Source: Bdellovibrionales bacterium (GTDB taxonomy: Bacteria > Bdellovibrionota > Bdellovibrionia > Bdellovibrionales > UBA1609). From it: a DNA stretch of 64,000 nt. The translations under genes were made by a program, and so were the position numbers. The notes under the pieces were generated by a model. It did no database searches and was not told the origin of the DNA. It saw only the letters and a list, made by a program, of their open reading frames with translations. Location of the stretch: NCBI GenBank assembly GCA_041391465.1, contig JAWKNX010000014.1:14958-78957 (forward strand), read 5' to 3'. Each line of letters starts with the position of its first letter. Position 1 is the stretch's first letter. Shown here piece after piece: positions 18,432 to 53,336 of this stretch.

Positions 18432-18447
18432 ATACTCCTAACTTTCT

Positions 18448-25080: not shown

Positions 25081-25094
25081 CTGATTTAGATCAT
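25081..25094. promoter_or_regulatory. FNR/Dnr-type box CTGATTTAGATCAT
   Basis: Between the nrdJ pseudogene stop and the small-ORF/nrdG/nrdD unit, about 100 nt upstream of the small ORF. Confidence 0.55.
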
Positions 25095-30927: not shown

Positions 30928-30929
30928 AC

Positions 30930-31271
30930 TTAAATGCTTTTGTCCTTTGATCTTTTTTCTTCATGACGCAACCTTTTGTCTTTGTCCCATCGGTCTACCT
31001 GCAAGCTGATTCCATCGACAATAATATCTTTATTACTTGAGCTAGAAAATAGAATATCACTGTCCTTTAGGGTCAACCCTACAACTAACTTTTGACCCTC
31101 TGAATGAACGTAAGAAGTTGATGAAGCTGTGTCGAAACAAATGCTTACTTGAAAAACAAAAGATCCAAAACTAAACGACTGGATTAAGCGCCTAGTGTTT
31201 TTCCAATTTGTGATGTCTTCTTCATTAAGTCGAATGCGAACTTCTTTATCGAGTCTGATATTCATAGACAC
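30930..31271 (-). CDS. hypothetical protein
   Basis: 113-aa ORF in operon position between moeB-fusion and tauE-like genes. No motif recognised. Confidence 0.4.
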   Translation of the reverse strand: MSMNIRLDKEVRIRLNEEDITNWKNTRRLIQSFSFGSFVFQVSICFDTASSTSYVHSEGQKLVVGLTLKDSDILFSSSSNKDIIVDGISLQVDRWDKDKRLRHEEKRSKDKSI

Positions 31272-32823
31272 TCCTTTTTGAGCACTGAATATTTTTATAA
31301 TTCATTTTCTGAAGTATTTCCTTAGCCCTCTCTGCTCGCACGCCAGCCTTACAAATTAAAATAACCTCACGATCCAAAGTAAAATCAGGGACCCTACCGT
31401 TCTCAAGCTCACTCAAAGGAAGATGGCTACTGCCTTCGATATGAAACTCGCTCCACTCATTTTTTTCTCTCACATCAACTAACAACGCAGAGGATCTATA
31501 ATTACAGTCGACCGGATTGGCCTCAAAAATTGCATCTTCGTTAAAGGTGGCTTTATGACATTGGCATGTTGGGCGAAGATTAATTCTAAGACTTCGATAA
31601 CTGTAGTCATAAAAATTGTAAAAGTTCACTCTACCAATGAGGGGAGTCAATTCGTCATTTCGACTTATTAGGACTTTCATTGCCTCCATGGCTTGAAGGG
31701 ATCCAATGGTTCCAACGACTGGGCCAATGACCCCAGCTTCGGCACAATTCTGAATTTTTGATTTGGGAACTGAAGGGTATAAACACCTGTAACAGGCCCC
31801 CTTAGAGCTCCAGAAAACACCAACTTGGCCCTCAAACTGAGAAATTGCACCGTAAATCATTGATTTGTCATACAAAGCGCAGACATCGTTGATTAAAAAT
31901 TTGCTTTCGAAGTTGTCTGTGCAATCTATGATCAAATCAGATGTCGCGAACAAATCTAAAGCCAATTTTTTATCTAAGAAAACCGGAACAGAACTTACAT
32001 CCACTTCATGGTTAATCATCTTAATCTTTTGTGATAATACTTCTGCTTTATTTTTTCCAATGTCATCATCGGTAAATAGAATTTGTCGATGCAGATTCGT
32101 GATACTTACTGTATCACCATCGACAATTTTAATGCCTCCAACCCCCATAGCTGCCAGATATTGGGCCACAGGATGCCCAAGACCACCAGCACCAATGATT
32201 AGTACTTTAGAGCTTAAAAGCTTAACCTGCCCTGCGTTTCCAATCTGAGGTAAGATCGTTTGTCTAATGTATCGCTGCATTCCAGTCCTCCGGCGTATTA
32301 AGGTTTGCGAAAAACTTTCTGGCTCTGGACCAATCTCGTTTACCTCAAGTTTATTAAAAAGAGTTTTGAATGAATTTCGGTGACAAGTCTCTTCAGTCGT
32401 TTTGATTTCTTCCATAAATTTGATTACTGCGCTTAGATCATAAATGACAAATGGGAGCTGCTGACCTTTAAACTTTGTAATTGGATGATCATATTTAGAA
32501 TGAAGAAGTTTTCTTAAAATATCCTCGGTTAAGAATGGCATATCAACTGGAACCACTAGAAGAGCCTGGTTTCGCTTATTTTTAAGCAAATGGTGAATCA
32601 CAGAGCGCAGACCCTCCATCGGACCCATGTTAGGCTCAATATCTTTAACGTGTAGATATTCCGGACGATCACCACTTACAATGACGTGGCCTTCGCCAAG
32701 AAGGGCCACTAACTTTTTAAACTGGCTGTGCAACAAGCTGACTCCACCAACAGGCAGCAAAGCTTTATCTTGCTTCATGCGAGTGGATTTCCCTCCCGCA
32801 AGAATGACCCCTACCATTTTCAT
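31246..32823 (-). CDS. moeB: MobA - MoeB/ThiF - rhodanese triple-domain fusion (Moco guanylyltransferase + MoaD adenylyltransferase/sulfurtransferase)
   Basis: Start set at MKMVGVILAGGKSTRM (MobA). Mid-region GAGGLGHPVAQYLAAMGVG..NLHRQ and CYRC (MoeB). C-terminal LLVDVRE...ICKAGVR (rhodanese Cys). Confidence 0.8.
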   Translation of the reverse strand: MKMVGVILAGGKSTRMKQDKALLPVGGVSLLHSQFKKLVALLGEGHVIVSGDRPEYLHVKDIEPNMGPMEGLRSVIHHLLKNKRNQALLVVPVDMPFLTEDILRKLLHSKYDHPITKFKGQQLPFVIYDLSAVIKFMEEIKTTEETCHRNSFKTLFNKLEVNEIGPEPESFSQTLIRRRTGMQRYIRQTILPQIGNAGQVKLLSSKVLIIGAGGLGHPVAQYLAAMGVGGIKIVDGDTVSITNLHRQILFTDDDIGKNKAEVLSQKIKMINHEVDVSSVPVFLDKKLALDLFATSDLIIDCTDNFESKFLINDVCALYDKSMIYGAISQFEGQVGVFWSSKGACYRCLYPSVPKSKIQNCAEAGVIGPVVGTIGSLQAMEAMKVLISRNDELTPLIGRVNFYNFYDYSYRSLRINLRPTCQCHKATFNEDAIFEANPVDCNYRSSALLVDVREKNEWSEFHIEGSSHLPLSELENGRVPDFTLDREVILICKAGVRAERAKEILQKMNYKNIQCSKRSVYEYQTR

Positions 32824-33289
32824 GATGATCAACCTTTCTATGCTGACAAAGTGCATGACCGCGAACCCAATCTGTTTCACCATTTTCGTAAAACTCTTTT
32901 TTCCAAATTGGAGCGCGAACTTTTATTTCTTCAATAATGTATCTTGTTATCCTGTAAGCCTCATCGCGGTGGCCTGTTGTCGCAAAGATGACGACACTGG
33001 CTTCGCCAACTTCGACCTTGCCATGTCGATGAACAATTAAAATATTTGCATCGGTGCACCACTTATCTTGGGCCTCTTTCGCAATATCAAAGAATGTTTT
33101 TTCACAAAGTGGAATAAAACAGTCGTATTCCATTTTTATAACGGTCTTTCCTAAATTTAAATTTCTGACAATGCCTACAAATGAATTCATTGCACCATGA
33201 CCAAGCGAAGGCTTGAAGCTGATGAGCTCACTCATATCCAGTGAACTTGTTGTAACCCTGACATCAATATTACCCATGTCAGCCCCCAC
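32765..33289 (-). CDS. moaE: molybdopterin synthase catalytic subunit with His/Cys-rich C-terminal tail
   Basis: GAMNSFVGIVRN...MEYDCF...APIWKKE. The roughly 40-aa tail (CQHRKVDHHENGRGHSCGREIHSH) overlaps the next gene by 59 nt. Confidence 0.75.
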   Translation of the reverse strand: MGADMGNIDVRVTTSSLDMSELISFKPSLGHGAMNSFVGIVRNLNLGKTVIKMEYDCFIPLCEKTFFDIAKEAQDKWCTDANILIVHRHGKVEVGEASVVIFATTGHRDEAYRITRYIIEEIKVRAPIWKKEFYENGETDWVRGHALCQHRKVDHHENGRGHSCGREIHSHEAR

Positions 33290-33545
33290 AAACTGGCGGC
33301 AATAATGCCAAGTGATTCAGATCCTTGATGATGTCGTCTTCGGCAAGGACTTCAGATTCCGTTGCAAGTGCAGACTCATAAACAAGGTTAGAATCTTTAA
33401 ATTCTGAGGACAAACTCTGAATCTCGCATTTAACTATTTCCTTAAGCTGGGCCACAGTAAGGTGGCTTGGAACTTGAACCTTCATGCCTCCGGATGAAAC
33501 AAATTGTCGAAATGCTCCAAACAGTCTAATTTCAATTTCGTTCAT
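33279..33545 (-). CDS. moaD: molybdopterin synthase sulfur-carrier subunit
   Basis: 88 aa, ubiquitin-like size, ending in ...PPVCGG (C-terminal Gly-Gly). Confidence 0.75.
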   Translation of the reverse strand: MNEIEIRLFGAFRQFVSSGGMKVQVPSHLTVAQLKEIVKCEIQSLSSEFKDSNLVYESALATESEVLAEDDIIKDLNHLALLPPVCGG

Positions 33546-34786
33546 AAAGTATATACCTCCACTTTAGTTCCTTTCTTAACAATCGATCCAGCCTCGGGGA
33601 ATACCACCCACGCATTCGAACGAATAAATGGACTCACCATAAAAGAAGCTTGTCCTTGTAGAGCCTCGACTCGTGTTTCTGGATGTTGAAAATCAACTTT
33701 TGCTTTGAAAAAACATTTTAATCCCTCTGGCTTTTTCATATCAGAATCTAAAATTGCCTTAATTGGGATTTCAGTAGACCCTAACAGTAAAAAATCTAGA
33801 AACGGCTTTACAAAAAACTTTAAGCCAACAGCAGTAGATACTGGATTTCCAGGCACGCCAAAAATAAAACGAATTCTGCCATTATAGTTAAGTGAAGCGA
33901 ATAAAACAGGCTTACCTGGTCTTATTGCACATTTATGAAAGTGAATTTCTGCACCCAAGTTTTCTAGTACAGGTCTTACAAAATCATGAACGCCCATACT
34001 AACGGCCCCAGTACTAATTAAAATATCACAGTCATCGTCGAATATTTTTTTCAGCTCCTGAACATAAAGTTCGGGATCATCTTGAATAATTCCATAATTT
34101 CTAACCTTTAAGTAAGGAACAGAGATCGCTGCTTCTAGATAAACACCAGTTGAATTGCGAATTTGGCCCGGCCTAAGCTCTTTAGTATCATGAGGAACAA
34201 TTTCCTTACCCGTTGAGAGTATCCCAACATTAATTGCTTTCTTAACCTTCACTAGGGAAACCCCTTGGGATGCAAGTGATAGCAAATGCTCGTTTGATAT
34301 GCGCATGCCTTTTGTAAATAAAATATCGCCGATTTTAGTGTCTTCTCCCTTTCGACGGATGTTGTCTCCAATTTTAGGTTTTGTCTTTAGTCTGATGAAC
34401 TCGTTACCAGACCCATCCTTTTTTTGCTCCACATCTTCAACTCGAACCACGGAATCAAAATAGGCATCAGGAATCGGCGCTCCTGTCATAATTTGAATTG
34501 CACTAAATACTTTTTTTACACTGATGTTACTATCGCCGGCACTAATCAGTGTTTGGACTGGAATCCAATCACCACTTCGTTCACTCTCGCTGTCAAGAGC
34601 TGCGACATTGACGGCAAATCCATCCATTGCGGAATTGTCAAACGGAGGATTGTTTTCTGCCGCAACTATGTCTTCCGCTAGAATACGACCGACAGATTGA
34701 TTCAATTGTATAGTTTCCGTTTGTGTGTGCGGGTACTTCACAGACATTTTTTTTAAAATTGCTAAACTCTCGTCATACATTATCAT
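33542..34786 (-). CDS. moeA: molybdopterin molybdotransferase
   Basis: 414 aa with FDNSAMDGFAV, STGKEI, ISTGAVSMG and GNPVS motifs. Confidence 0.9.
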   Translation of the reverse strand: MIMYDESLAILKKMSVKYPHTQTETIQLNQSVGRILAEDIVAAENNPPFDNSAMDGFAVNVAALDSESERSGDWIPVQTLISAGDSNISVKKVFSAIQIMTGAPIPDAYFDSVVRVEDVEQKKDGSGNEFIRLKTKPKIGDNIRRKGEDTKIGDILFTKGMRISNEHLLSLASQGVSLVKVKKAINVGILSTGKEIVPHDTKELRPGQIRNSTGVYLEAAISVPYLKVRNYGIIQDDPELYVQELKKIFDDDCDILISTGAVSMGVHDFVRPVLENLGAEIHFHKCAIRPGKPVLFASLNYNGRIRFIFGVPGNPVSTAVGLKFFVKPFLDFLLLGSTEIPIKAILDSDMKKPEGLKCFFKAKVDFQHPETRVEALQGQASFMVSPFIRSNAWVVFPEAGSIVKKGTKVEVYTL

Positions 34787-34804
34787 TGTTAAACTCCTTT
34801 ATAT

Positions 34805-35776
34805 TTAATGATGGGATTCTCCACGCATCATTCTCACGGCATGAGGTATCAGAGAGCCAACACAGTCAAGACCCTGCTTAACAGCCTTCGGACTGCCGGG
34901 AAAAAGAACAACTAGGACATTTTTCACAACATACGCCGATGATCGAGATAACCACGCAGCTTTCGTGTAATGAGAACCAAACTGTCTTTGAAGCTCACCA
35001 AAGCCGACAAGTTCTTTCGACGAAATATCTTTGATAGTATCAGGGGTGATGTCGCGATTAGAAATGCCCGTACCACCAGTTAGTAGAAGAATATCCACTT
35101 TTCTTTCTACAGACTCATTAACGAGCCTTCGAAGAGCTTCAGGTTCATCCGGTATAATTTTGTAGAACTCTTCTTTTCCCGATCTTTTTGAGCAAAACTC
35201 TCTTAGCAGAGTGCCAGATTGATCATCGTAAATACCTTGACTGGCACGATCACTAAGAGTTCCCACGGAAAATCTAAGTCCCTGAAAAGAATTGTCACAC
35301 GTGGGAGGGCTCTTCTGGGCCGAGGCCAATTTGGGATGCGTCCACACTCCTGACTTTCCACCTTCTTTTTTCTGCAAATAGACATCCGTGATTTCAATAA
35401 CAGGATCAACGGCTTTCGCTAAATCGTAAATAGTCAATAAACAGACATTTAGGCCTGTTAAAGCTTCCATTTCTACGCCTGTTTTAGCACTGCAAATGAC
35501 CTCACAACTGGCATGCACTTCAGTCTCTTCAATTTCAAACCAGATCCTTACTGAATCCAGAATCAGCGGATGACAAAGCGGCAGAAGATTCGATGTGTTT
35601 TTCGCGGCCATAATCCCAGCCACTTCCGCAATAGAAAGAATGTTTCCCTTTGGCGAGTCTCCTTTGAGTATCATTTGCATCGTGACGGGACTCAGACGAA
35701 TTGTGCCCGTAGCAACGGCTTTACGACGAGTAGTTTCTTTATCGCCCACATCAATCATTCGATAATTTTGTTTCAT
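34805..35776 (-). CDS. moaC: MoaC - MoaB/MogA fusion (cPMP synthase + MPT adenylyltransferase-like domain)
   Basis: N-terminal half AGIMAAKNTSNLLPLCHPL (MoaC). C-terminal half TLSDRASQG...LLLTGGTGISNRD (MogA/MoaB fold). Confidence 0.85.
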   Translation of the reverse strand: MKQNYRMIDVGDKETTRRKAVATGTIRLSPVTMQMILKGDSPKGNILSIAEVAGIMAAKNTSNLLPLCHPLILDSVRIWFEIEETEVHASCEVICSAKTGVEMEALTGLNVCLLTIYDLAKAVDPVIEITDVYLQKKEGGKSGVWTHPKLASAQKSPPTCDNSFQGLRFSVGTLSDRASQGIYDDQSGTLLREFCSKRSGKEEFYKIIPDEPEALRRLVNESVERKVDILLLTGGTGISNRDITPDTIKDISSKELVGFGELQRQFGSHYTKAAWLSRSSAYVVKNVLVVLFPGSPKAVKQGLDCVGSLIPHAVRMMRGESHH

Positions 35777-36748
35777 TCATCCTCCAATCGCAGAAAGGCT
35801 ATGCATGTTGCCGTATACGTTTTGATGCAATCTGTGGCCTTCGGGCTTAAATTTAAGCGCACAAGCAATCATTTCTTTAAGCTCGAAACGATCACTCGAA
35901 CTCTGTAATAAATGGCGAAGCGACACATCTCCCTGGCCAAAAAGACAAAGCCGCAGGCCCCCAGTAGAGGAGACTCTGAGTCGATTGCATGCCAAACAAA
36001 AGTCTTTACTGTATGGAGATATGAAGCCGATTTTTCCAAGAAACTCTGGATGGCCAAATTCTTTTGCCGGGCCGCTTGCGGGGCCCGATTGCTGAGCCTC
36101 CCAGCCACCTCTCAATAAAGTTTGCTCAAAAGTTGAAACAGGCAGGTGGTGTTTTCTAAAGTATTCTTGATTATCGCCTGTACGCATGAGTTCAATAAAA
36201 CGAATTGAAATTTGTCGTGATTGAGCGAATTTGAGAAATTCTGGGAATTCGACGTCATTCAAATCTTTTAAAAGAACACAATTTAACTTTATACTTTTAA
36301 ATCCCATATGAATGGCACGATCAACTACTCGTTTTATCGACTCACACTTGTCTGCTCCGCAAATCGATTGAAATTTTTCTTTGATCAATGAATCTACACT
36401 TACATTCAGACAATCTAAGCCTGCGCTTCGAAGGACTTCCAGATCTCGCTCAAGTCTAAATCCATTTGTGGTCAAAGCCACCTGCGAAATGCCGACTTCG
36501 TTTTTAAGTGCGTAGATGATTTTTACCAAATCAGGGCGAAGTGTAGGCTCGCCACCCGTGAGACGAATTTTTTCAATGCCCAGTTCTTTAAAAGCTGATG
36601 CAAGATTAATAATCTCGTCAAGCTCCAAACTTTTAGGCGAACAACCCCTGTAGCCATTCGGAAGGCAGTAGCTGCACTTGAAATTGCACTTTTCGGTTAG
36701 TGAAAGTCGAAGGTATTTAAATTTTCTAGAAAAGCTATCTACTAGCAT
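35777..36748 (-). CDS. moaA: GTP 3',8-cyclase (radical SAM)
   Basis: LRLSLTEKCNFKCSYC, LTGGEPTLR, C-terminal CxxC-x13-C (CLACNRLRVSSTGGLRLC). Confidence 0.9.
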   Translation of the reverse strand: MLVDSFSRKFKYLRLSLTEKCNFKCSYCLPNGYRGCSPKSLELDEIINLASAFKELGIEKIRLTGGEPTLRPDLVKIIYALKNEVGISQVALTTNGFRLERDLEVLRSAGLDCLNVSVDSLIKEKFQSICGADKCESIKRVVDRAIHMGFKSIKLNCVLLKDLNDVEFPEFLKFAQSRQISIRFIELMRTGDNQEYFRKHHLPVSTFEQTLLRGGWEAQQSGPASGPAKEFGHPEFLGKIGFISPYSKDFCLACNRLRVSSTGGLRLCLFGQGDVSLRHLLQSSSDRFELKEMIACALKFKPEGHRLHQNVYGNMHSLSAIGG

Positions 36749-36866: not shown

Positions 36867-37559
36867 CTATTTGTTTATCGCAACTGATCCACCACAACAC
36901 ATCGTCTCTGGTTCAGCTTGGCCAGTAAACCAACTTGCTCTTTCAGGTTGAGCACCTATTCTTTTGCATTCATTTGTTACGACCATATCAACCCACGCTA
37001 AAATGCTTTTATAAGATTCCGAAGTCGCCACACCATCTCTTTCTAGAATTGCCGGTATAAATCTTCCTAAATGGGAATTCATGAATTTCCTCATTCCATC
37101 AGTTACAACTTCACAACCACGAAGATCTTTTGTCTCACTTAAGTAAATATACTTCATCACTAGTAGGCTATAGAACTCGAGCTCAACTGATAAATGGTCA
37201 ACCATGTCTTTATCGCCATTACTGTCCATCTCAAATCCAAAGGCCCTATAGAATCCTGCGATGTCGGAAAGCTCGGTAGCTTTGTACATCGCTCTTTCTC
37301 TGCCATACTCAGTTTCATAAAGCGGATTTAGGGACTTTGAGTGGTCAAAAATAGAAATATACTCTGACCTTAAGTCATTTAATGCGGCCTCATCTGTACT
37401 TAATACTTCGAGTCTGTTCTTTAAATCTTCTGGTAGCACAATTGTATCATCTTCCATCAACTCTCTCAGTGCAGACTGAAAGTTACTGTCTGGATAAGAG
37501 GTGAGAATCGACGCTAAAACTATTTGGCCAGGTAAAATGTTAGTATTTAGTATACTCAT
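36867..37559 (-). CDS. TorD/NarJ-family redox-enzyme maturation chaperone
   Basis: 230 aa, all-helical, SEYISIFD...NPLYETEY pattern. Position after the gamma subunit, as in type II DMSO reductase operons. Confidence 0.65.
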   Translation of the reverse strand: MSILNTNILPGQIVLASILTSYPDSNFQSALRELMEDDTIVLPEDLKNRLEVLSTDEAALNDLRSEYISIFDHSKSLNPLYETEYGRERAMYKATELSDIAGFYRAFGFEMDSNGDKDMVDHLSVELEFYSLLVMKYIYLSETKDLRGCEVVTDGMRKFMNSHLGRFIPAILERDGVATSESYKSILAWVDMVVTNECKRIGAQPERASWFTGQAEPETMCCGGSVAINK

Positions 37560-37570
37560 ATGCTCCTCTT

Positions 37571-38419
37571 CTACTTTTCTAAAATATTAAATGGAGTCCA
37601 CATCATCGTGAGTGACTTGATTGCTCCAATTTCTTTCTTTCCGCCCTGCCAGACCGCAAAAGCGACATGACTTTTTTTACCAATCAGCAGCTTTGATCCA
37701 TTTTCATAAATTAGAGGTCTTGCAATATATGCCGTCCACTCACCATTATTCCACTCGCCATACCCTTGTGCTAAATGCGAGTCAGACACGGCGGAAGATC
37801 CAAAGCCTTCAGCAAATATTTCGTCAACCCCTGACTTAGGGAACGATTGGGGATTTCCAGCAGCAGTCCCTCCTACGAAAGATTCCTTTTGATCCTTAGA
37901 TGCTTCTTTAAAATTTCCTTTTTGTTTGAAGTCCATGGGGTACATGTCAGCGGTCATATTGGGATAGATCTGATCGATTGTTTTTTTTCCTTTTTTTGCG
38001 TCGACCTGATACTGATACTTCCAATGAAAGAGATGTACAGGATCATCTTTTCCACCCATCATGATAGGTGGCGGAACTTCGTTATTCTTAATAGGAAACT
38101 GAAGGGCCACGGCATCAGAAAATGTCGCAAGCTTTTCAGACTCACTTACCTCGCTGTCCTTCCATTTCATTCGAAAGACAATCCATTTCCCATCGTGAAC
38201 AGCGGTTACATTAATCAGCGACGTTTCAGTATTTTTAGGCTTAGGTGCCACCATGGGTTGTCCCATCAAGTTAATTACTTGATCAGGACTTGCCATTTTC
38301 CAAAGAGTTTCATCTTTATAGTCTTTAGAAAGGTCACCCGCTATTTTCTTTACGTCAATATCAGCATTACATTCAAAGCTGATTAGTATTAATATACTGA
38401 CAAATAAGTTTAATTTCAT
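37571..38419 (-). CDS. gamma subunit, ethylbenzene-dehydrogenase-like heme-b domain, secreted
   Basis: Start set at MKLNLFVSILILISFECNA (GAGG Shine-Dalgarno, after the beta stop). DGKWIVFRMKWKD...DAVALQFP resembles the EB_dh domain of NarC/SerC/EbdC/NxrC-type subunits. Confidence 0.7.
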   Translation of the reverse strand: MKLNLFVSILILISFECNADIDVKKIAGDLSKDYKDETLWKMASPDQVINLMGQPMVAPKPKNTETSLINVTAVHDGKWIVFRMKWKDSEVSESEKLATFSDAVALQFPIKNNEVPPPIMMGGKDDPVHLFHWKYQYQVDAKKGKKTIDQIYPNMTADMYPMDFKQKGNFKEASKDQKESFVGGTAAGNPQSFPKSGVDEIFAEGFGSSAVSDSHLAQGYGEWNNGEWTAYIARPLIYENGSKLLIGKKSHVAFAVWQGGKKEIGAIKSLTMMWTPFNILEK

Positions 38420-38426
38420 AAAAACC

Positions 38427-39557
38427 TCATGGAGTGTTATTTCTTGAAGTTCCATACTTTTCATCAAAAGCAGGACGCGAGTAAATTTGCTCTGTGACTG
38501 GCACGTTTATAATTTCATCGCCCTTCTCATCATAAGCATAGGCAAATCCATTTTTTACGTTAAAGTCATGAATAATTCGATCTGTGCTTCCCATAAGTAC
38601 AAGAAGTCCCTGCGCGATCGGGTCGTCTTTCAATTTACGATAAGTCTCAATAGCACTATCCACATTCGGACCAAACATCTGAGTAAGATACTCTCTATCT
38701 GCATGGATCGGTGGTATGTAATAGATATTTGGTTCCAACCCAAGTTGAGGATAGTACGGTAACGCTAAACCAGTTTTGTGCACCAAGTAATCAACCGGAT
38801 TGCTTCCTCTTGATTTCCACGGTGGATTAATAAATCCCATGATTCTAATTTTACCGATACAATTTGTGACACAGCGGGGCTGATAACCTTGCTCAACAAA
38901 CGGATAACATCCAATGCATTTTTCACTAATACGAGAATGGGCATTGTACATTGATTTTTTGTATGGGCAGGCTTTCACGCACTCTCCGTATCCCTTGCAT
39001 CTCGATTGATCAATTAGAACCACTCCGTCTTCTTGTCTCTTGTAAATTGCTTTACGCGGACAGGCTGCAAGACAAGCTGGGTAAGTGCAGTGTGCACATG
39101 TCCTTGGAAGGTAAAAAAACCATTTGTCATGCTGAAGAGATATGTAGTCGCCCTTATTGACTTGTCCTGCACAATCGTCTTCTCCGTGATTTGGATACAT
39201 CCAGTCTTGATCTTCTGGCGCGAAATGGGCGGCGCGCTCGTGACTTTCAGCGGCCTCAAATATTGTTTTACCGTAATATGGCTTTTTCTTCTCCCATTCC
39301 TGATGCCCAAGTCTCTCAAGAACTTTCACATCCCAGGCCAGGGGGTAGGATCCGTAGGGTTTTGTCTCGACATTATTCCAAAACATGTACTCTTGACCTT
39401 TTCCACTGGTCCAGGTTGTTTTGCATGCCAGCGTACAAGTCTGGCATGCAATGCACTTGTTTAGGTCAAATACGATAGCCCATTGCTTTTTAGGCCTGTT
39501 CTCATCGTAGGGATAATCCATTTCTCTATTGATCTGCCAATTTTTTACTTTTGCCAT
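38427..39557 (-). CDS. beta subunit, four-cluster iron-sulfur protein (NarH/NxrB-like)
   Basis: CIACQTCTLACK, CAHCTYPACLAACP, CKGYGECVKACP, CIGCYP ... C cluster motifs. Confidence 0.9.
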   Translation of the reverse strand: MAKVKNWQINREMDYPYDENRPKKQWAIVFDLNKCIACQTCTLACKTTWTSGKGQEYMFWNNVETKPYGSYPLAWDVKVLERLGHQEWEKKKPYYGKTIFEAAESHERAAHFAPEDQDWMYPNHGEDDCAGQVNKGDYISLQHDKWFFYLPRTCAHCTYPACLAACPRKAIYKRQEDGVVLIDQSRCKGYGECVKACPYKKSMYNAHSRISEKCIGCYPFVEQGYQPRCVTNCIGKIRIMGFINPPWKSRGSNPVDYLVHKTGLALPYYPQLGLEPNIYYIPPIHADREYLTQMFGPNVDSAIETYRKLKDDPIAQGLLVLMGSTDRIIHDFNVKNGFAYAYDEKGDEIINVPVTEQIYSRPAFDEKYGTSRNNTP

Positions 39558-39578
39558 ATTTCCTCCGATGTCTTCGAC

Positions 39579-42500
39579 CTAAGATTTTTTCTTTTTCATA
39601 AAGCCGCCTTTTAAATACTTCTTCATGGCTTTGTTTTCATAGGTTGGTCGAAACCCAAGTTCTGCGGGTCTAAACTTTCCTTTCCCATCTAGTCCACCAG
39701 CTTCAGCTTTGGTGATTTTCACAAATGCTTCTCTTGGGGCTCCGTTTACACAATGAATATCGGCCTCAAAACCCTTTCCAATTCCCTGTCCAAACATCGA
39801 TTTATGAACTAACGTCTCTGTCTGTAGGGTCGGTCTCAACCACGCCCTTGTTGCACTTTGATGACTTCCATATCTGTACATGGCTTGATAATTGGTTTCG
39901 GGTGATTTCGCCAATCCATCAGGACGAGTCTCATGTCCTTTTACGCTACCAAACGTTGCTCCGTACATATTGTGCCAGGTGCGGGCAATGCCCCTAGGTG
40001 TTCCCGGGTAGTAACGTGCCCTCAAAAGCAAACGTGCGACTTTATACTCATCGGTTCCTTTTTTCCAACCACGGAAAGGACGGTCCTCTGGGTCGGCATC
40101 AATGTAGACATAGTCTCCATCATTTACATTAATAGCTTTAGCATCCAATGGATTAATGTCGACATAACCTTCGACCACAAACGGCAGTCTCTTATCATGC
40201 CTGTACACATCTCCAAAAGGACCAAATAAGACAGAGTTAAAGTCGGTATCAATCGGCGTCGAATGCGCCCCGTGACGATATTTGGGTGTATGATAGACAT
40301 GCGAGTACTGAAGCTTGAGCTTTAGTGGATGCTTAGACTTCAGCGTCTCATCGACCGTCTTAATCACATTTCTGACCTGTCTTGTTTCGCTGGACAAATC
40401 ACTTGATGAAAACCCCCAATCTTCAGGGCTTGTTGGTCGAATAGCTTCATGCTTTTCAGCGACAATTACATTCGGTTCGTGGTGAGTCGAATCGACAGGC
40501 TCACGATGGACCACAAGATTTTCGCCGTGCTCAATGAATTCGGGCTCGAATCTGTAGAACTCAAGCCTTCCAGATTTAGTATGCCAAGGCACCTCACCCA
40601 ATGCTTGTTCATAAGACGAAATTCGTGGGTAGGTTCTCATATTCATCAGAGCGGGAATTCCCTTTTTGGCATTAAAATGAAGATCTTCAAACTTGTTTCC
40701 ACTTAATGAGTCGGACGCATCAATAATTCGCTGCAAATATTCTCCGACATCATTGTTCCAAACAAATTTAAAGCCATCCTCCAATCGAGACTCTCCAATA
40801 TGCTTACCGAGAGCCTTTGAAACACCGGCAATGATTTCAATATCTGATTTTGTGTCAAAAATTCTCGGAAGTGGTGTCTCGGGGTAAACCTGAGCAAATG
40901 GATTTGTACATGACCCAGTAAGATCTGGCATTTTCGTTTCAGCCCAACTATCGCAGGCGTAAACAATATCAGCGTACTCACAAGATCCTGTCCACCACCA
41001 ATCAGCATAGGCAATGAATTCAACTTTTGGCAGTGTGTTCATAACAACATCGTAATGCCATTTAATATTGCCAATTACAGAGTTTGAATTATTGAGCCAC
41101 ATTAGCTTCGTTGGAGTCGGCATATGACCTTCTCCGGTGAACATTTTCTTCCCGATCTTTAGCGGGCGCTGTCCATAGTTAAAATAGTGAATAGATTCGT
41201 AGTGGGAGTACTTCTTAATTTTGGGCTTTCCGCCCTTATTTAGATTAAGATTAAATGGATCTTCTGATGCGTATACTGGTTCACCACCAATAATTGAAGA
41301 TCGATAGTTGCCAGCATAGCTGCCGACATTCCCCCCAGGAAAGCCGACATTTCGAGTCAACGCCGCGACTAAGAAAATGGCTCTATCTTTTAAATCCGCA
41401 TTGAAAAATTGATTGGGACCCATACCGGTAGCAAATAAGGTTTTCTCTTTGTTTTCCGAAATCAATTTCGCAAATTTTAAAACACCCTCAACAGGAGCCC
41501 CAGTAATCGCGCTTGTTTTGGCAGGTGTAAAGTTTTTGTTGAGGTACTCACGCATCAAATGAAAGCCAGATCTAACCTTTACACTTTTTCCATCCAGAAG
41601 TTTTACTGTGGTTTCGACATTCAGTTTAGGAGAAATTCCTAGTTTTTCAAAATTTTTACCAAAATCGTCGCGTGTGACTACTTTCTTTTGCCCTCGTTTG
41701 TCGATGACCACATAGGGCTGGAACTCTCCCTTCATTGATTCAGATGCGAACTGTTTTAGTTTGTCTTTGGACTTTTCACCCTCTTTAACGAATTGAATTG
41801 ACTTCAGATCTGGCTCGACGAATCCCTTAATGAAATCTTTTGGACGCAGCGGCTCTAGGGTATCCATTCGAATTAAAAATGGTAGGTCGGTATTTTTGGC
41901 AACCCAATTAGCATCATACTGATTTTTGCTGATAATCACTTGAGCTAAACCCAAAGCAAATGCTGGGTCTGAGCCCGGTCGAATAACCACGACCTCATCA
42001 CACTTAGAAGCAGTAGCACTGTACTCGACGGTTACTGTTGCGATCTTTGCACCTTTAAGCCTGGCCTCTGTCATCCAATGAGAATCTGGCATCTTAGTGG
42101 TTATCCAGTTCATCCCCCAAGGAATGATAAGTTTCGCGTGTTCTGTCGAAAATAAGTCAAAGTCGTTTGTTTGTGAGCCTGTCACCATTGGGTGACCAGG
42201 AGGCAAATCGGTATGCCAACTGTATGAATCCCAACCCCTTGCCCCATGGGATTTTTCCGGAGATACGTTGCGAAGTTTTGAGTCCATTAACGCTAATAAG
42301 TTGGCAAATCGATACATTCCGAAGAGTCTCGTCGCACCTAGAAACGCCATGCCACCTCGGAACTTCAGAGTTTGCGTTCCAGATCCTTCCATTGCATGAA
42401 TCATTTCTTCGTCGTAACCTTGCGCTGTTAAATACTTTTCTCCTTGTGCTCCGTTATATGTTTTAGCGATATTTTCAATGGCCTGGGCCGAAATTTTATT

Positions 42501-43046
42501 GATTTCGTCCCAACTGACACGAAGCCATTTATCTTTACCCCTTTGAAAAAATTTGGGATCTGGTTTACCTGTAGCTGCATCCCTTGGAAATCCAGAATCC
42601 ACCCATTCTTTAAATCCTCTACGAACCATAGGAGCTTTAACCCTGCGATCACCATAGACTCGTCGAACCAGAGCCAGGCCTTTTTGACAAATACGTGGGT
42701 CCCATCGATGTGAAGATTGGTTCCCGTACAAGTCTTTGGCTTTTCCATAGCCAAAAGAGGGACCAATTCTTAAAACAACGCCGTTTTTGGTATAAGCTCG
42801 TAGTAAGCAGTTGTGCGTGTCATTCGGTGCACATAGAAAGTGATATTCACTGTCGGTCTTGAATATATCTCGATATACTTTTTCCCAATCTCGATTTGGA
42901 TACTGAGCCAACGGATTATCAATAATTGTTGGTTTGAAATACTTTAGAGGTCCACCGAAGACATTGGTACTAGCTAGAACTGTCGCACCAACGGCTGTGC
43001 CCTTCAGAAAAGTTCTTCGCGTTAATTCTTTTTTTTGATCAGACAT
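39579..43046 (-). CDS. Tat-exported NarG/NxrA-like molybdopterin oxidoreductase alpha subunit (type II DMSO reductase family)
   Basis: 1155 aa. Twin-arginine signal [20 protein letters not shown]-terminal His/Cys cluster region [12 protein letters not shown]...C. Molybdopterin-binding-domain length and layout. Confidence 0.85.
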
Positions 43047-43055
43047 ATAAACTCC

Positions 43056-43379
43056 TCATATGTTGTAAATCTCTCCTGTAAATATTGATAACACCGCGGT
43101 TTCTGGCCACTCTTCACTCAAGTGTGCCTGCAGAAGGCCGTTGTTACTTAAAGACAATCGAAAGTTTTTATTCGTATCTTCACTACGAAGACGAATGCCC
43201 TCGGGGAGGGATTCAACTGTCATCTCGAAATTATTTATTTTAATTTTAGCCTTTGTATGAACTGAGAACGCAGCCAAATGGCCAATCGTAATAATGTTCT
43301 TATCTTGAGAGTTCTCGGCAAGATCTGATTGTTTAGGAACAAGATTTTTAAAAAATTCTCTCCGTGAATTGTTAATCAT
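43056..43379 (-). CDS. hypothetical 107-aa protein with a twin-arginine-like motif but no hydrophobic core
   Basis: MINNSRREFFKNLVPKQSDLAENSQ... The rest is beta-rich. Translationally coupled in the nar-like operon. Confidence 0.45.
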   Translation of the reverse strand: MINNSRREFFKNLVPKQSDLAENSQDKNIITIGHLAAFSVHTKAKIKINNFEMTVESLPEGIRLRSEDTNKNFRLSLSNNGLLQAHLSEEWPETAVLSIFTGEIYNI

Positions 43380-44167
43380 GCTCGCTCCCCATAGACAGCA
43401 ACTGGACTTGCGTCTTTTAAATTGAAGAACGGAAATTTTTCCTTAACCAGCTTTTCTAAATGAGATCGGTAAATAGTACCTGCTGACCCACACGTTAAGT
43501 TCTCTTTGGGCTCAAGTTTGTAGAGAAGGTTTTTTTCAGACAATCCAAGAAATTTAAGGTCAATTTTCATTTCACTAAATTTTTGCTGAATAGCCTCAAG
43601 ATCTAATCTGAGATTCTCTGGTAATGCGCCCCACTTGTTTGAGTTTGACCAAATCGCATCAGTAGGGCTCGATTCTTCATCAAAAAAAACATCAATACAT
43701 TCATCATCATTGACTGCGACCGAGCTATTTCGAACAAATCCAACTTCATCGCTGATTCCAACGACCAAGCCGTCAATAGCTTCTCTCCAATATTGGCAAT
43801 AACGATGGCCGATTTGACGACCGAAAGTACAACCTTTTCGATTGAGAACTTGGGCCGATGGTTTTGTTTCCCATGTACCCTGGAAACATGGAGAACCAAG
43901 CTTTCCAACGTAAGTGGTAAAATCACTTTTTTCCCATGCTAAGTTTTTAGATTTTTGGTAGCTTCGTCCAAGATTTCTTGAATTTAAAAAAACTGACTTT
44001 AGTAGCTCATCGAATTTTTCTTCTTCTAGACTATTTATATCTAATAAGAATTCGTCTTCTCTTACTCTGCTTTCAAGAACTTCTCTAAAGGCGTACTCTC
44101 GAGCAGCTTTCCATCTTGCTCCTAAATCTTGCACTGTGCTTTCTACATAGTCTTGAGAATTCTCCAT
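43376..44167 (-). CDS. hypothetical 263-aa Cys-containing protein
   Basis: ORF tightly coupled to tatA (TGAGATG junction) and to the next ORF. Cys residues in CFQG..C..C..ECID..C. No family recognised. Confidence 0.45.
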   Translation of the reverse strand: MENSQDYVESTVQDLGARWKAAREYAFREVLESRVREDEFLLDINSLEEEKFDELLKSVFLNSRNLGRSYQKSKNLAWEKSDFTTYVGKLGSPCFQGTWETKPSAQVLNRKGCTFGRQIGHRYCQYWREAIDGLVVGISDEVGFVRNSSVAVNDDECIDVFFDEESSPTDAIWSNSNKWGALPENLRLDLEAIQQKFSEMKIDLKFLGLSEKNLLYKLEPKENLTCGSAGTIYRSHLEKLVKEKFPFFNLKDASPVAVYGERA

Positions 44168-44168
44168 C

Positions 44169-44384
44169 TCAGCCCTCTTCTCTATTCAAAATTTGGGGCC
44201 TTTCTGACGAGCCTGATATCTGTCTACGGTCAATCTCCTCACCATTTGTGTCTTGAAGCCCTTTTTTGAAATTAGAAATTGTTTTGCCCAACGCTTGACC
44301 AAGAGAAGGCAGTCGACTTGGTCCAAAAAAAAGAAGAGCGATTCCCCCAATAAGTAAAATTTCAGTCATCCCAAGTCCACCCAT
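44169..44384 (-). CDS. tatA: TatA/E-family twin-arginine translocase subunit
   Basis: Start set at MGGLGMTEILLIGGIALLFFGPSRLPSLGQALGKTISNFKKG (TAGGAG Shine-Dalgarno). The long upstream extension in the track contains the FNR-like box. Confidence 0.8.
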   Translation of the reverse strand: MGGLGMTEILLIGGIALLFFGPSRLPSLGQALGKTISNFKKGLQDTNGEEIDRRQISGSSERPQILNREEG

Positions 44385-44450
44385 AGCAACTCCTAATATT
44401 CTCAAGTGGTTTTCACTGTCAGATACTACGGGAGATAGAATTGAATGCTT

Positions 44451-44464
44451 ATGACTTAGATCAC
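44451..44464. promoter_or_regulatory. FNR/Dnr-type box ATGACTTAGATCAC
   Basis: Centred about 73 nt upstream of the tatA ATG, at the head of the tatA-nar-like operon. Confidence 0.55.
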
Positions 44465-44703
44465 ATGGAAGAAGCTTAACAAACGACATGAGTAGAAATT
44501 GAGCTTGGGTATGCGGTCACTCGAAATTCGTTGTTTTTTATCTGAGGACCCTACACTGGCATAAAGTCTTGAAATAACTATCAATTACTTGAAAGTTAAA
44601 AAATTCTGGAACCAAATGCCTCGGCTTCAAAAAATGCAAATTATAATGGACTATTTACCAGTCCTTAATGGCTTTTTAGTGGCCTTGAGTAAATATCTGC
44701 TAT

Positions 44704-45352
44704 GCATACGCATCGCCTTAGGCCAATTGGATGCCTTCGATTCCATGATAAGCTGAAACTGAGCTTTGCGGACATGGTTGATGATCTGGGGTAGATTGCC
44801 ACTGGCTACTGCTGCAAGGCCAATACAACTGCGATTTTGATAAGACTATTCATTTAATCCTCCTACTTTTTCGTTTTTCTTTTGTTTGGTTAGCTTTGAT
44901 GATTCTTCTGACCACGCACGGACGCCACGTTTTACCAGTCGACTTGGAATCTTTTGGTGATTCAGTTCAGCAGCGATGGCATTGCCTGACATTCCCGATT
45001 GGTGAAGCTTTAAAATTTTTCTGACAATAATCTGCTCTTTGGGGTCAATGAGAAGTTGCCCATCAAGGTAAGCGTAGCCGTATGGTGTGTGACCACCGCG
45101 CTTAGTATGTAGTCGATCTATGTGGCGAGCATTTCCATTGAGGATTTCTCAGTGACATTCCGCTTTGGTAAGAGCTTCGCGAACAGTAGATTTCGGTATT
45201 CCTGGTAGCTACCATATCGCGAATTGAGAGACCTTTTTCGTAGAGAGGAGCGCATTTTTCATAGAATTCGTGCTGGTGTTCTAGGAGAAAGTTCAATAAA
45301 ATCATGATGATGGTGGGGTTCGCTTGTCGATTGATTAGGTCCACCATTTTTT
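44704..45352. repeat. ~650-bp direct repeat, copy A (decayed)
   Basis: Aligns by eye with 52679-53336 in the same orientation, roughly nine of ten positions identical, with several small indels. Confidence 0.8.
44862..45347 (-). pseudogene. recombinase-domain gene remnant (frameshifted copy of 52838-53416)
   Basis: The 45102-45347 track ORF carries YEKCAPLYEKGLSIRD, then loses frame. Downstream pieces still encode GYAYLDGQLLIDPKEQ-like sequence in other frames. The small peptide ORF (ATG at 44852) is also frameshifted. Confidence 0.7.
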
Positions 45353-52828: not shown

Positions 52829-53336
52829 TTGATCCTCCTACTTTTTCGTTTTCTTTGTTTGGTTAGCTTTGATGATTCTTCTGACCACGCAAGGACGCCA
52901 CGTTTTGCCAGTGCGACTTGGAATCTTTTGGCAATTCAATTCGGTAGCAATGGCATTACCTGACATCCCTGATTGGTGAAGCTTTAAAATTTTTCTGACA
53001 ATGATTTGTTCTTTTGGATCAATAAGAAGTTGCCCATCAAGATAAGCGTAGCCGTATGGTGTGTGTCCGCCTCGCTTAGTATGTAGTCGATCTATGTGGC
53101 GAGCATTTCCATTGAGGGGATTTCTCAGTGACACCCCACTCTTTGTAAGAGCTTCGCGAACAGTAGATTTCGGTATTCCTGTGCGCTCTTCTATATCTCG
53201 AATAGAGAGGCCCTTTTCGTATAAAGGGGCGCATTTCTCGTAAATTCGTGATTGTGTTCTAGGGGAAAGTTCAATAAAATCGTGATGATGATTGGGTTCG
53301 TTTGTCCATTGGGCTCCACCACCAAATTTTTCAACT
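52679..53336. repeat. ~650-bp direct repeat, copy B (intact genes)
   Basis: Partner of 44704-45352, offset about 7975 bp, same orientation. Confidence 0.8.

Follow-up and report, generated by a model that had tools for sequence, protein, structure and literature searches.

A minus-strand operon in a 64,000-nucleotide stretch of a Bdellovibrionales genome (hereafter the window) probably encodes a periplasmic respiratory nitrate reductase of the NXR/pNAR type, an alpha-beta-gamma heterotrimer serving anaerobic nitrate respiration; we put the probability of this reading at roughly 70%. The enzyme is of a known and widespread kind, and the operon adds a new member from a predatory-type bacterium (Pseudobdellovibrionaceae). 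If the reading is right, the host most likely respires nitrate without oxygen.

Subunits, cofactor ligands and export signals

The operon runs tatA, two genes for proteins of 263 and 107 aa, alpha, beta, gamma and a NarJ/TorD-type chaperone, directly followed by a complete set of molybdenum-cofactor (Moco) genes. The original prediction had recognized alpha, beta, gamma and the chaperone, all of which lie on the minus strand where it placed them; its upper boundary, 44384, is a real coordinate (the start of tatA), but tatA itself and the two genes after it had gone unmentioned.

44169-44384, minus strand: tatA, Tat translocase subunit, 71 aa (PF02416, E 4.5e-17; TIGR01411 over cutoff)
43376-44167, minus strand: p263, cytoplasmic Cys-rich protein, 263 aa, clade-specific accessory gene
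43056-43379, minus strand: p107, 107 aa, N-terminal SRRxFF Tat-like motif without a hydrophobic core
39579-43046, minus strand: alpha, Mo-bisMGD catalytic subunit, 1155 aa (PF00384), Tat signal
38427-39557, minus strand: beta, 376 aa (Fer4_11), four Fe-S motifs, no signal peptide
37571-38419, minus strand: gamma, EB_dh-fold haem-b protein, 282 aa (PF09459, E 2.6e-25), Sec signal MKLNLFVSILILISFECNA
36867-37559, minus strand: NarJ/TorD-type assembly chaperone, 230 aa (PF02613, E 8.9e-15)

Homology to the Kuenenia NXR structure is full-length for all three subunits: alpha matches KsNXR-A (NxrA, PDB 7B04_B) at 908 bits (E 1e-271), beta matches 7B04_A at 383 bits and gamma matches 7B04_C at 81 bits. 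The alpha motif TRRTFLKG fits the Tat consensus S/T-R-R-x-F-L-K. Its FS0 ligands, C72-x3-D76-x3-C80 plus C120, form an unusual 3Cys/1Asp set, and alignment showed that the Mo-ligand Asp280 is kept, within Y275-x4-D280-x11-Q292-T, as is Asn75, for which a substrate-positioning role in NAR and NXR has been proposed (PMC8387239). In the translation of beta we read four Cys groups, CIACQTCTLAC, CAHCTYPACLAACP, CKGYGECVKACP and CIGCYP...CVTNC, the third with Tyr where NarH has Trp, i.e. of the 3Fe-4S type; TIGR03478 scores 268 bits on beta, under its cutoff of 480.7. Beta is presumably co-exported with alpha. Gamma most likely starts at ATG 38419 rather than at an overlapping TTG at 38467, and inspection of its translation found no hydrophobic segments beyond the signal peptide. 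Met121 and Lys268 of gamma align with the KsNXR-C haem ligands Met155 and Lys305, and these positions are kept in 72 (Met) and 68 (Lys) of 73 gamma homologues. The chaperone scores 68.8 bits with TIGR03482, under cutoff.

As predicted, no NarI- or NarK-like gene is present: window ORFs of at least 120 aa hold no NarI, NarK/MFS, Nor or Nos domains. The missing membrane quinol-oxidizing subunit had been implied to be something of an oddity, and that part was overstated. Kuenenia NXR is itself soluble and periplasmic and has the same layout without such a subunit (PMC8387239), and the Nitrotoga NxrC has no transmembrane helix (PMC6050957), gamma being likewise soluble here. Lack of NarI and NarK is normal for soluble periplasmic members of the NXR-type family, and NarK is not needed because the active site is periplasmic. 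An orthologous Tat-exported NarG-NarH-NarJ-Orf7 (haem b) cluster serves nitrate-dependent methane oxidation in Methanoperedens, with a Rieske/cytochrome b complex and cytochrome c as the proposed electron route (PMC4683180, PMC7327174).

Accessory genes and the conserved 14.3-kb block

Gene calls for L001, a locus 99% identical to this one, include tatA at the same length of 71 aa. Sequence searches of Pfam, NCBIfam and the PDB returned no match for p263; a homologue search gave 59 proteins, all from sources labelled as Bdellovibrionota-type organisms, that share five invariant Cys and a CQYWREAIDGL motif. An AF2 model of p263 (pLDDT 90) matched Bet3/V4R/H-NOX-like folds only weakly. In 32 loci of the Bdellovibrionota and Myxococcota clade p263 sits immediately upstream of alpha, against 0 of about 50 other loci, and it marks this subclade. 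Family and PDB searches with p107 were without match as well. This gene is confined to 9-10 loci of Bdellovibrionota type, each time with p263 on one side and alpha on the other, and its AF2 model from a single sequence (pLDDT 42) is unusable.

30124-36748, minus strand: Moco gene set, small ORF and TauE-family permease (Pfam, L001/L002 gene calls, family clustering)

The co-oriented Moco genes are moaA, a moaC-moaB fusion, moeA, moaD, moaE and a mobA-moeB(ThiF)-rhodanese gene; the small ORF and the permease then complete a conserved block of 14.3 kb. Colinearity with L001 and L005 extends from 44454 to 30175/30165, at about the end of tauE, and the flanks beyond differ. All genes are intact, with operon proteins 96-100% identical to L001 and 79-98% to L005; the G+C of the block is uniform with the remaining window, and the vicinity includes recombinase fragments and an IS element. 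Because the block occupies different neighbourhoods in close relatives, it behaves like a transferable nitrate-respiration cassette.

Phylogenetic placement

We placed alpha in a neighbour-joining (NJ) tree of 112 sequences and 1124 columns (100 bootstraps), built on simple corrected distances rather than by maximum likelihood. Alpha falls inside the long-form periplasmic NXR/pNAR clade with 100% support, and this clade is split at 100% from the sampled shorter (~980-1200 aa) type II relatives (Thermincola, Halorussus, Ammonifex) and E. coli NarG. Within it, alpha groups with Ca. Methanoperedens nitroreducens, Thioploca and Thioalkalivibrio; the anammox NXRs form the sister group, again split at 100%. 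Alpha is 57.7% identical to the Ca. M. nitroreducens "NarG", 40.6% to the Kuenenia protein (41% to the anammox NXRs) and 27.5% to E. coli NarG. A subclade of Bdellovibrionota and Myxococcota that includes alpha has 100% support, and gene order is kept across it at alpha identities of 64-83%; the close relatives are all MAGs. Kitzinger et al. (2018) described a sister clade of the Nitrospira and anammox NXRs, and alpha's group, in a tree that lacks Nitrotoga, Hydrogenobacter, Nitrospira and Nitrospina references, is equated with it on the basis of the literature (PMC6050957).

Genomic context, candidate electron donor and probable function

A second set of features bears on physiology, and here the neighbours named in the original prediction (NirK, NnrS, two CRP/FNR regulators and a cytochrome c) are all present.

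13830-20628, no strand assigned: denitrification/NO-stress neighbourhood (Pfam matches) with nnrS, two CRP/FNR genes, a hemerythrin-domain protein, SCO1, a NirV-like FGE-sulfatase protein and a NirK-cytochrome c fusion
13830-14984: NnrS
15040-15738 and 16536-17222: the two CRP/FNR regulators
19213-20628: NirK-cytochrome c fusion
11716-12087, plus strand: small monohaem class I cytochrome c (PF13442, PF00034), with box TTGATCTAGATCAT at 11666-11679
44452-44463, minus strand: FNR/Dnr-type box TGATCTAAGTCA upstream of tatA

The FNR-like box announced at 44451 is there, but its palindrome is imperfect, the right half reading GTCA for ATCA. A -10 element, TAGTAT (44423-44428), predicts a transcription start, and the box is centred about 41.5 nt upstream of it. 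Perfect palindromes stand at the same place in L001 (TGATCTCGATCA; 98% nucleotide identity) and L005 (TGATCTGGATCA; 88%); box and -10 element are conserved in both, the upstream flanks are unrelated, and similarity between the genomes starts at about the box (blastn boundary 44454). TGAT-N4-ATCA boxes also precede the genes for the cytochrome c, nnrS (15031) and nirK (20709), and a TGAC-N4-ATCA variant precedes a hemN-like gene. The window holds five TGAT-N4-ATCA sites against 2.0 expected, a mild enrichment that 7 of 100 shuffles also reach. The nrdD and oxygen-independent hemN-like genes of the window indicate an anaerobic lifestyle.

Genes that turn up repeatedly no more than 10 kb from the operon in the 31 closest loci are those for Moco synthesis, a small cytochrome c (8 loci, the window included), CRP/FNR (7), NorB (4), NorC (3), NirK (3) and NnrS (3); membrane quinol dehydrogenases are not among them. 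In seven related loci, homologues of the cytochrome c are encoded at a distance of 1.3-7.7 kb from the operon, lending support to the earlier suggestion that this protein is a candidate partner. In a Bdellovibrio sp. genome the operon is flanked by a NIT-domain (nitrate/nitrite-sensing) chemoreceptor and modABC. The recurrent nirK, nnrS, norBC and CRP/FNR genes, the small cytochrome c and the conserved box favour anaerobic nitrate reduction with a soluble cytochrome c donor, and strengthen a case that had been argued from context.

The heterotrimer would hold Mo-bisMGD and FS0 in alpha, four Fe-S clusters in beta and one Met/Lys-ligated haem b in gamma. Judging from their families, the NarJ/TorD chaperone would aid cytoplasmic cofactor loading of alpha, in which Cys-rich p263 may have a further part; folded alpha would then pass through Tat, with a contribution from the operon-encoded TatA, carrying beta along, and gamma would leave through Sec. 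Electrons would run from a quinol:cytochrome c oxidoreductase with genes at another genomic site (the window encodes none) through a soluble c-type cytochrome to the gamma haem, the Fe-S chain and Mo, where nitrate would be reduced to nitrite in the periplasm; the nearby-encoded NirK-cytochrome c fusion would convert nitrite to NO. A class II FNR/Dnr-type promoter would drive expression under low oxygen or NO.

The physiological role might instead be that of a nitrite oxidoreductase, or the enzyme might run both ways: nitrite would be oxidized in the periplasm, with a terminal oxidase receiving the electrons by way of gamma and cytochrome c, and this would serve detoxification or supply additional energy. 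The original prediction held that the sequence does not reveal the direction, and the sister clade of Kitzinger et al. bears this out, holding both the nitrite oxidizer Nitrotoga and nitrate reducers that, its authors suggest, might also oxidize nitrite (PMC6050957). KsNXR runs both ways (PMC8387239), true NXRs share the high-potential Met/Lys haem b and the 3Cys/1Asp FS0, and a periplasmic orientation with a cytochrome c partner fits either direction. We nevertheless consider nitrite oxidation unlikely: the nirK, nnrS, nrdD, hemN-like and CRP/FNR neighbourhood and the FNR/Dnr-type box speak of denitrification and anaerobiosis, norBC and nirK recur beside the operon in relatives, neither window nor flanks carry carbon-fixation or nitrifier-type genes, and Methanoperedens, whose organism-level function is the best documented in the tree, reduces nitrate (PMC4683180).

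[quoted passage not shown] The Ser, Clr, Pcr, Ddh and Ebd operons do share the layout of Tat-exported alpha, Fe-S beta, EB_dh gamma and TorD-like delta, sequence gives no direct reading of substrate, and the best NCBIfam matches are generic type II subfamily and EbdABCD models, but these all fall far under cutoff (alpha 277 against 984.75; EbdA 146 against 2000). [quoted passage not shown] Moreover, the long-form alphas (~1150 aa) make up a 100%-supported clade for whose characterized members the literature gives nitrate or nitrite as substrate (PMC8387239, PMC4683180), Asn75 is kept, and the window showed no chlorite dismutase domain. The unrelated flanks of the 14.3-kb block, the recombinase fragments and IS element, the degenerate half-site in the window's promoter box and the lack of a quinol-oxidizing partner in the window would suit a recently acquired, poorly integrated or silent cassette, its enzyme intact and without respiratory use for want of an electron-donating module. 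This, too, is improbable given the intact genes and their identity to L001 and L005, the gene order kept across the subclade, the uniform G+C, and the presence in the window of denitrification genes preceded by boxes of this type.

Gene content and predicted export of the operon

The original prediction described a Tat-exported NarG/NxrA-type molybdoenzyme encoded without a membrane quinol-oxidising subunit, and Pfam and NCBIfam searches identified the components it had named. They lie in a single co-oriented gene string on the minus strand, running from tatA through two further genes (p263 and p107, of 263 and 107 aa) to the alpha, beta and gamma subunits of the predicted enzyme and a chaperone.

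Genes of the operon (window positions)
44384-44169, minus strand: tatA, 71 aa, TatA_B_E (Pfam/NCBIfam)
44167-43376, minus strand: p263 ORF, 263 aa
43379-43056, minus strand: p107 ORF, 107 aa
43046-39579, minus strand: alpha subunit, 1155 aa, Molybdopterin domain and Tat signal TRRTFLKG
39557-38427, minus strand: beta subunit, 376 aa, Fer4_11
38419-37571 (most likely extent), minus strand: gamma subunit, 282 aa, EB_dh
37559-36867, minus strand: chaperone, 230 aa, Nitrate_red_del
Directly downstream, same strand: Moco genes moaA, moaC-moaB fusion, moeA, moaD, moaE and mobA-moeB-rhodanese, then a TauE-family permease

The twin-arginine signal of alpha (TRRTFLKG) is matched by both PF10518 and TIGR01409 and looks functional; gamma begins with an N-terminal Sec signal (MKLNLFVSILILISFECNA), and beta carries no signal. 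A Tat-exported alpha, a Sec-exported gamma and a signal-less beta together mark the periplasmic members of the long-form NXR/pNAR clade, and predict the same orientation here. Neither NarI, MFS/NarK, Nor nor Nos domains were found in any window ORF of at least 120 aa, and PF02665 and MFS genes are missing both from the window and from the 10-kb surroundings of the operon in the 31 nearest related loci. The missing NarI and NarK are expected for this architecture and constitute no anomaly; with a predicted periplasmic active site, they set the locus apart from canonical respiratory NarGHI, which is recognised by NarI, a cytoplasmic active site and NarK.

The genomic context cited in support of nitrate reduction is also present in the window: a NirK-cytochrome c fusion, NnrS, two CRP/FNR regulators and a 123-aa cytochrome c, accompanied by a NirV-like protein, SCO1, nrdD and a HemN-like radical-SAM enzyme. 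NirK (19213-20628) ends in a class I cytochrome c domain, and therefore has an electron-donor domain fused to the enzyme; a NirV-like gene with an FGE-sulfatase domain and the SCO1 gene follow it. A protoglobin-domain protein (3382-4044) and a hemerythrin-domain protein (17206-17841) share the window with these denitrification genes and may be gas (O2/NO) sensors or handlers of NO stress.

Family assignment and phylogenetic placement

All three subunits found their best solved-structure match in the nitrite oxidoreductase of Kuenenia stuttgartiensis (KsNXR; PDB 7B04), with 908 bits for alpha over its full length (residues 7-1151), 383 bits for beta and 81 bits for gamma. Matches of alpha to PcrA (163 bits), EbdA (124 bits) and E. 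coli NarG (~120 bits) were partial, which bears out the earlier reading of the subunits as NXR/pNAR-type. The NCBIfam models for type II DMSO reductases (TIGR03479/03478/03477/03482) were the best or near-best matches, all well below their curated cutoffs (score/cutoff: alpha 277/984.75, beta 268/480.7, gamma 111/169.85, chaperone 68.8/152.3), which argues that the enzyme belongs to a divergent branch. Judging by the scores, the models may have been built around a narrower set of proteins, our guess being the shorter Ser/Clr/Ddh/Ebd-like enzymes, and the window enzyme appears to be a divergent relative lying outside it.

We mapped the residue roles assigned in the KsNXR structure paper (PMC8387239) onto the window proteins. 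The Mo ligand is retained as Asp280 of alpha (Y275-SWHT-D280, within Y-x4-D-x11-QT), which aligns with Asp275 of KsNXR-A in a column that is Asp in 112/112 aligned alpha sequences; the original prediction had proposed an alignment of this ligand. The substrate-facing Asn75 is likewise kept. At the site of FS0, the N-terminal [4Fe-4S] cluster, alpha has C72-APN-D76-THN-C80 plus C120, and D76 aligns with D71 of KsNXR-A. Met and Lys of gamma align with the haem-b ligands M155 and K305 of KsNXR-C and recur in 72/73 and 68/73 homologues of gamma, respectively. By alignment, then, the enzyme would have a 3Cys/1Asp FS0 and Met/Lys haem-b ligation. [quoted passage not shown]

Relatives of alpha occur in at least 594 genomes in a scan of species-representative genomes, and over 120 database proteins share at least 69% identity with it, their named sources being Oligoflexia, Bdellovibrio and Pseudobdellovibrionaceae MAGs. 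The closest are from Pseudobdellovibrionaceae MAGs (99% and 97% identity), followed by other Bdellovibrionota (72-83%) and Myxococcota/Polyangiaceae (65-69%). Candidatus Methanoperedens nitroreducens, Thioploca, Thioalkalivibrio thiocyanoxidans and many candidate phyla follow at 55-58%; pairwise values are 57.7% for Methanoperedens, 55% for Thioploca, 40.6% for Kuenenia and 27.5% for E. coli NarG. Operon copies of the Bdellovibrionota type, with identities of up to 98%, also sit on contigs in MAGs labelled Bifidobacteriales, Planctomycetota, Cloacimonadota, Obscuribacterales and Heliobacteriaceae (loci L011, L012, L019, L020, L060 and L076); these contigs are probably mis-binned, the alternative being recent transfer. 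Our literature search on this enzyme in Bdellovibrionota returned metagenome surveys and, among the papers examined, no dedicated description.

A phylogeny of alpha, as called for in the original prediction, was built as a neighbour-joining tree of 112 sequences (1124 trimmed columns, 100 bootstraps), with anammox NxrA (Kuenenia, Brocadia, Jettenia, Scalindua) and E. coli NarG as references; the placement of Nitrospira, Nitrospina, Nitrotoga and Hydrogenobacter relative to its groups is taken from the literature, verified sequences of these being outside the tree. Long-form enzymes (~1150 aa) formed a clade at 100%, apart from NarG and from the shorter (~980-1200 aa) Thermincola-, Halorussus- and Ammonifex-type proteins. 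This clade splits, again at 100%, into an anammox-NXR group and a second group in which window alpha joins Methanoperedens, Thioploca, Gaiellaceae and a Natronococcus plasmid copy. Nested in the second group is a Bdellovibrionota+Myxococcota clade (34 sequences, 100% support) containing a Bdellovibrionota-type subclade (15 sequences, 100% support). Length, full-length homology and tree position all point to membership of window alpha in the long-form periplasmic NXR/pNAR clade, as had been anticipated, and a p263 homologue directly upstream together with at least 64% alpha identity puts it in the Bdellovibrionota+Myxococcota subclade. It appears to lie outside the anammox NXR lineage as sampled here, with 40.6-41.5% identity to the Kuenenia, Brocadia, Jettenia and Scalindua proteins, and Nitrospira and Nitrospina, the verified sequences of which the tree lacks, fall outside this comparison. 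The enzyme class is thus known; new is an uncharacterised representative in the Bdellovibrionota+Myxococcota subclade.

This topology fits the published picture, in which Methanoperedens, Nitrotoga, anammox bacteria and the Nitrospirota/Nitrospinota oxidisers form one major clade (PMC10732223), and a 'sister clade' of the Nitrospira/Nitrospina/anammox NXRs unites Nitrotoga NXR with NARs of known nitrate reducers, including the Hydrogenobacter enzyme, a characterised periplasmic NAR (Kitzinger et al. 2018, PMC6050957).

Among named systems, the Methanoperedens cluster (NarG-NarH-NarJ-Orf7, MPEBLZ_02035-02038) shares the major tree group, a Tat-exported alpha of ~1150 aa with the FS0 and WHTD Mo-Asp motifs, a signal-less beta, a secreted haem-b gamma, a NarJ-type chaperone, the lack of NarI and cytochrome c as the proposed electron supply (PMC4683180). 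Its gene order, however, is alpha-beta-chaperone-gamma, its gamma is just 27% identical, p263 and p107 homologues are absent, its host is an archaeon, and it goes on with NapH-like and HCO-II-like membrane proteins (PMC4683180), of which we found no homologue here. KsNXR-ABC is homologous over the full length of all three subunits and shares the Mo-ligand Asp, the Asn, the 3Cys/1Asp FS0, the Met/Lys haem b and a soluble complex without a membrane subunit (PMC8387239), but falls in the other major tree group (40.6% alpha identity), is located in the anammoxosome as tubules with NXR-T, no NXR-T-like cytochrome being present in the window operon, and has nitrite oxidation as its physiological direction. 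Nitrotoga fabula NXR and Hydrogenobacter thermophilus NAR, compared by description (PMC6050957), are likewise periplasmic with a Tat alpha and a Sec gamma, which in Nitrotoga lacks a transmembrane helix and is accompanied by a chaperone in the locus; their 'sister clade' mixes nitrate reducers with one nitrite oxidiser. Nitrotoga has Y-x4-D-x11-QM where window alpha has QT (PMC6050957).

E. coli NarGHI shares with the window enzyme the superfamily, an Asp Mo ligand, a four-cluster beta and a NarJ-type chaperone, but its NarG (27.5% alpha identity) faces the cytoplasm with no functional Tat export, has a His ligand in FS0 (HGVNCTGSC), and requires the dihaem membrane protein NarI and the NarK transporter, neither of which was found in the window. 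The Ser/Clr/Pcr/Ddh/Ebd enzymes resemble it in operon layout, export logic and an EB_dh haem-b gamma that is Met/Lys-ligated as in EBDH. SerABC/ClrABC-type enzymes exchange electrons with periplasmic cytochromes and not directly with quinol, a further likeness to the electron route proposed here. The alphas of the Ser/Clr/Pcr/Ddh/Ebd enzymes, by contrast, measure ~900-980 aa, and matches to them are partial and far below family cutoffs.

Likely physiological role and its alternatives

Clade membership predicts that the window enzyme interconverts nitrate and nitrite. Methanoperedens is the relative in the tree with the best-documented function at the organism level: its NarG (Tat)-NarH-NarJ-Orf7 (haem b) cluster is highly transcribed during nitrate-dependent methane oxidation, with electrons proposed to come from a Rieske/cytochrome b complex via c-type cytochromes (PMC4683180, PMC7327174). 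The gene neighbourhood points the same way. For the 31 closest loci, we clustered every ORF lying up to 10 kb from alpha and recovered p263 in 29/31 and MoaA in 17/31, with the other Moco genes, beta, gamma and the chaperone likewise recurrent. CRP/FNR regulators occurred in 7/31 loci, NorB in 4/31, and NorC, NirK and NnrS in 3/31 each. A small monohaem cytochrome c was found in 8/31, including the window (11716-12087), where it lies 31 kb away; no membrane quinol dehydrogenase was recurrent within this 10-kb range. The operon of one Bdellovibrio sp. genome has modABC, a CRP/FNR gene and a NIT-domain chemoreceptor gene on its flanks.

Upstream of tatA lies a putative FNR/Dnr-type site (TGATCTAAGTCA, 44452-44463); a TAGTAT -10 element predicts a transcription start ~41.5 nt away. 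In the same position, two related loci carry a perfect palindrome (TGATCTCGATCA; L001, 98% nt identity) and TGATCTGGATCA (L005, 88% nt identity); both keep the -10 element, and the genomes start to resemble each other near the box. TGAT-N4-ATCA boxes lie upstream of the genes for the cytochrome c, NnrS and NirK as well, and the hemN-like gene is preceded by a close TGAC-N4-ATCA variant; enrichment of the core in the window is modest (5 observed vs 2.0 expected). The canonical FNR motif TTGAT-N4-ATCAA, allowing one mismatch, is not enriched there (4 found vs 6 expected), a canonical search with two mismatches misses the operon box, and a scan for consensus promoters and terminators gave counts not above those in shuffled sequence. 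The case for the box as a putative regulatory site comes solely from the TGAT-N4-ATCA core and the comparison across genomes. An orphan box, TGATTTAGATCA, lies at 25082-25093.

Because of the function in Methanoperedens, the neighbourhood genes and the promoter evidence, we regard anaerobic periplasmic nitrate reduction under FNR/Dnr control as the most likely role of the enzyme (probability about 0.7). By analogy with the enzyme family, the chaperone would assist Moco insertion into alpha, alpha and beta would be exported jointly via Tat and gamma via Sec, and electrons would enter through a soluble cytochrome c, passing to haem b, the Fe-S chain and finally Mo.

The enzyme might also run in reverse. 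KsNXR works in both directions, and the literature puts Nitrotoga in the sister clade, so that an enzyme that physiologically oxidises nitrite, or works both ways, deserves consideration; we judge this rather unlikely because the context is denitrifying and anaerobic. A broader proposal, that Bdellovibrionota and Myxococcota enzymes are at least part-time nitrite oxidoreductases, that p263 is a new dedicated maturation or redox-sensing factor tuning them, and that Tat, enzyme and Moco genes travel as a self-sufficient 14-kb cassette, strikes us as a long shot when taken jointly. Part-time nitrite oxidation, if true, would give predatory or micropredatory bacteria a lithotrophic side income or a means of nitrite detoxification. 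The operon layout shared with Ser/Clr/Pcr/Ddh/Ebd raises another oxyanion or an organic substrate, but the clade placement, the weak and partial Pcr/Ebd similarity and the lack of a cld gene leave this very little room, and there is a barely larger chance that the operon is a silent, recently acquired cassette, given that its genes are intact and strongly conserved.

Surveys of nitrite oxidation commonly rely on NXR-type genes as markers. The window locus is part of a large uncharacterised branch, with relatives in at least 594 species genomes, whose distinct Bdellovibrionota+Myxococcota subclade occurs in a denitrification context; nxr-like genes of this kind are variously annotated as nitrate reductase or nitrite oxidoreductase and should not be taken to indicate nitrification. 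If the enzymes are functional, periplasmic nitrate respiration would be open to members of the Pseudobdellovibrionaceae and to many Myxococcota, which bears on the persistence of predatory bacteria in anoxic sediments and wastewater.

Candidate accessory proteins and the conserved cassette

The most original element of the locus is p263, a cytoplasmic, uncharacterised protein with five invariant Cys and a CQYWREAIDGL motif. It had no Pfam, NCBIfam or PDB sequence match, including by family profile search. Its AF2 model is confident (pLDDT 90), and Foldseek returned weak Bet3/V4R/H-NOX-like matches with a query TM of ~0.33, too weak to assign function. The p263 profile matched 32 loci, every one of them within the Bdellovibrionota+Myxococcota clade and with the match directly upstream of alpha, and none of ~50 other loci. 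We hypothesise that p263 is a dedicated maturation or sensing factor; such a strictly co-occurring, Cys-rich protein could be a new accessory factor for the enzyme class, a proposal concrete enough to test. The neighbouring protein, p107, has an SRRxFF motif without a hydrophobic core and is confined to a subset of Bdellovibrionota. A cluster-less Rieske/NirD-like fold gained no support for it (hhalign against E. coli NirD, probability 1%), and a single-sequence structure model was unusable (pLDDT 42).

Three genomes, those of the window, L001 (98% nt identity) and L005 (88%), share a colinear 14.3-kb block that runs from the box through tauE (44454-30175). It contains tatA, the genes for the enzyme and its chaperone, and the complete Moco pathway. 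Similarity ends on both sides and the flanks are unrelated among the three, which suggests a transferable cassette; the block looks like a self-sufficient, possibly mobile module. The gene that closes it encodes a TauE/SafE-family anion permease (30124-30927) and recurs downstream of Moco genes in 5 related loci. Within the block, MobA (NTP_transf_3), MoeB/ThiF and rhodanese form one 545-aa ORF (31246-32883), whereas the same region of L001, 98% identical, is called as two overlapping genes (186 and 344 aa); the discrepancy reflects either a genuine fusion or else an indel or a sequencing difference.

Fragments of serine-recombinase/resolvase-like genes (44490-45350 and 52838-53416) lie close by on the upstream side of the operon and comprise an 81-aa ORF (45102-45347) and a 192-aa ORF with Recombinase and HTH_7 domains; at the corresponding place L001 has an HNH endonuclease gene instead. 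Also nearby in the window, an IS-type DDE transposase (DUF772 and DDE_Tnp_1_6; 23190-24635) adjoins a class II ribonucleotide reductase that appears as two separate fragments (26663-27523, and 25144-26094 with TSCPD) and may be disrupted or frameshifted.

A search of a plasmid collection yielded one haloarchaeal (Natronococcus) homologue of alpha at 45% identity, the other matches listed being canonical NarG or other molybdoenzymes at ~23-27%. The homologue, on Natronococcus occultus SP4 plasmid 2 (NC_019976.1, 114873-118321; L084), is a long-form NXR-type alpha (98% query coverage) that lacks a gene annotation in the plasmid table. No EB_dh gamma was detected at this locus; a 4Fe-4S beta and a TorD-family chaperone follow alpha, with ric and a gene for cbb3-type oxidase subunit I close by.
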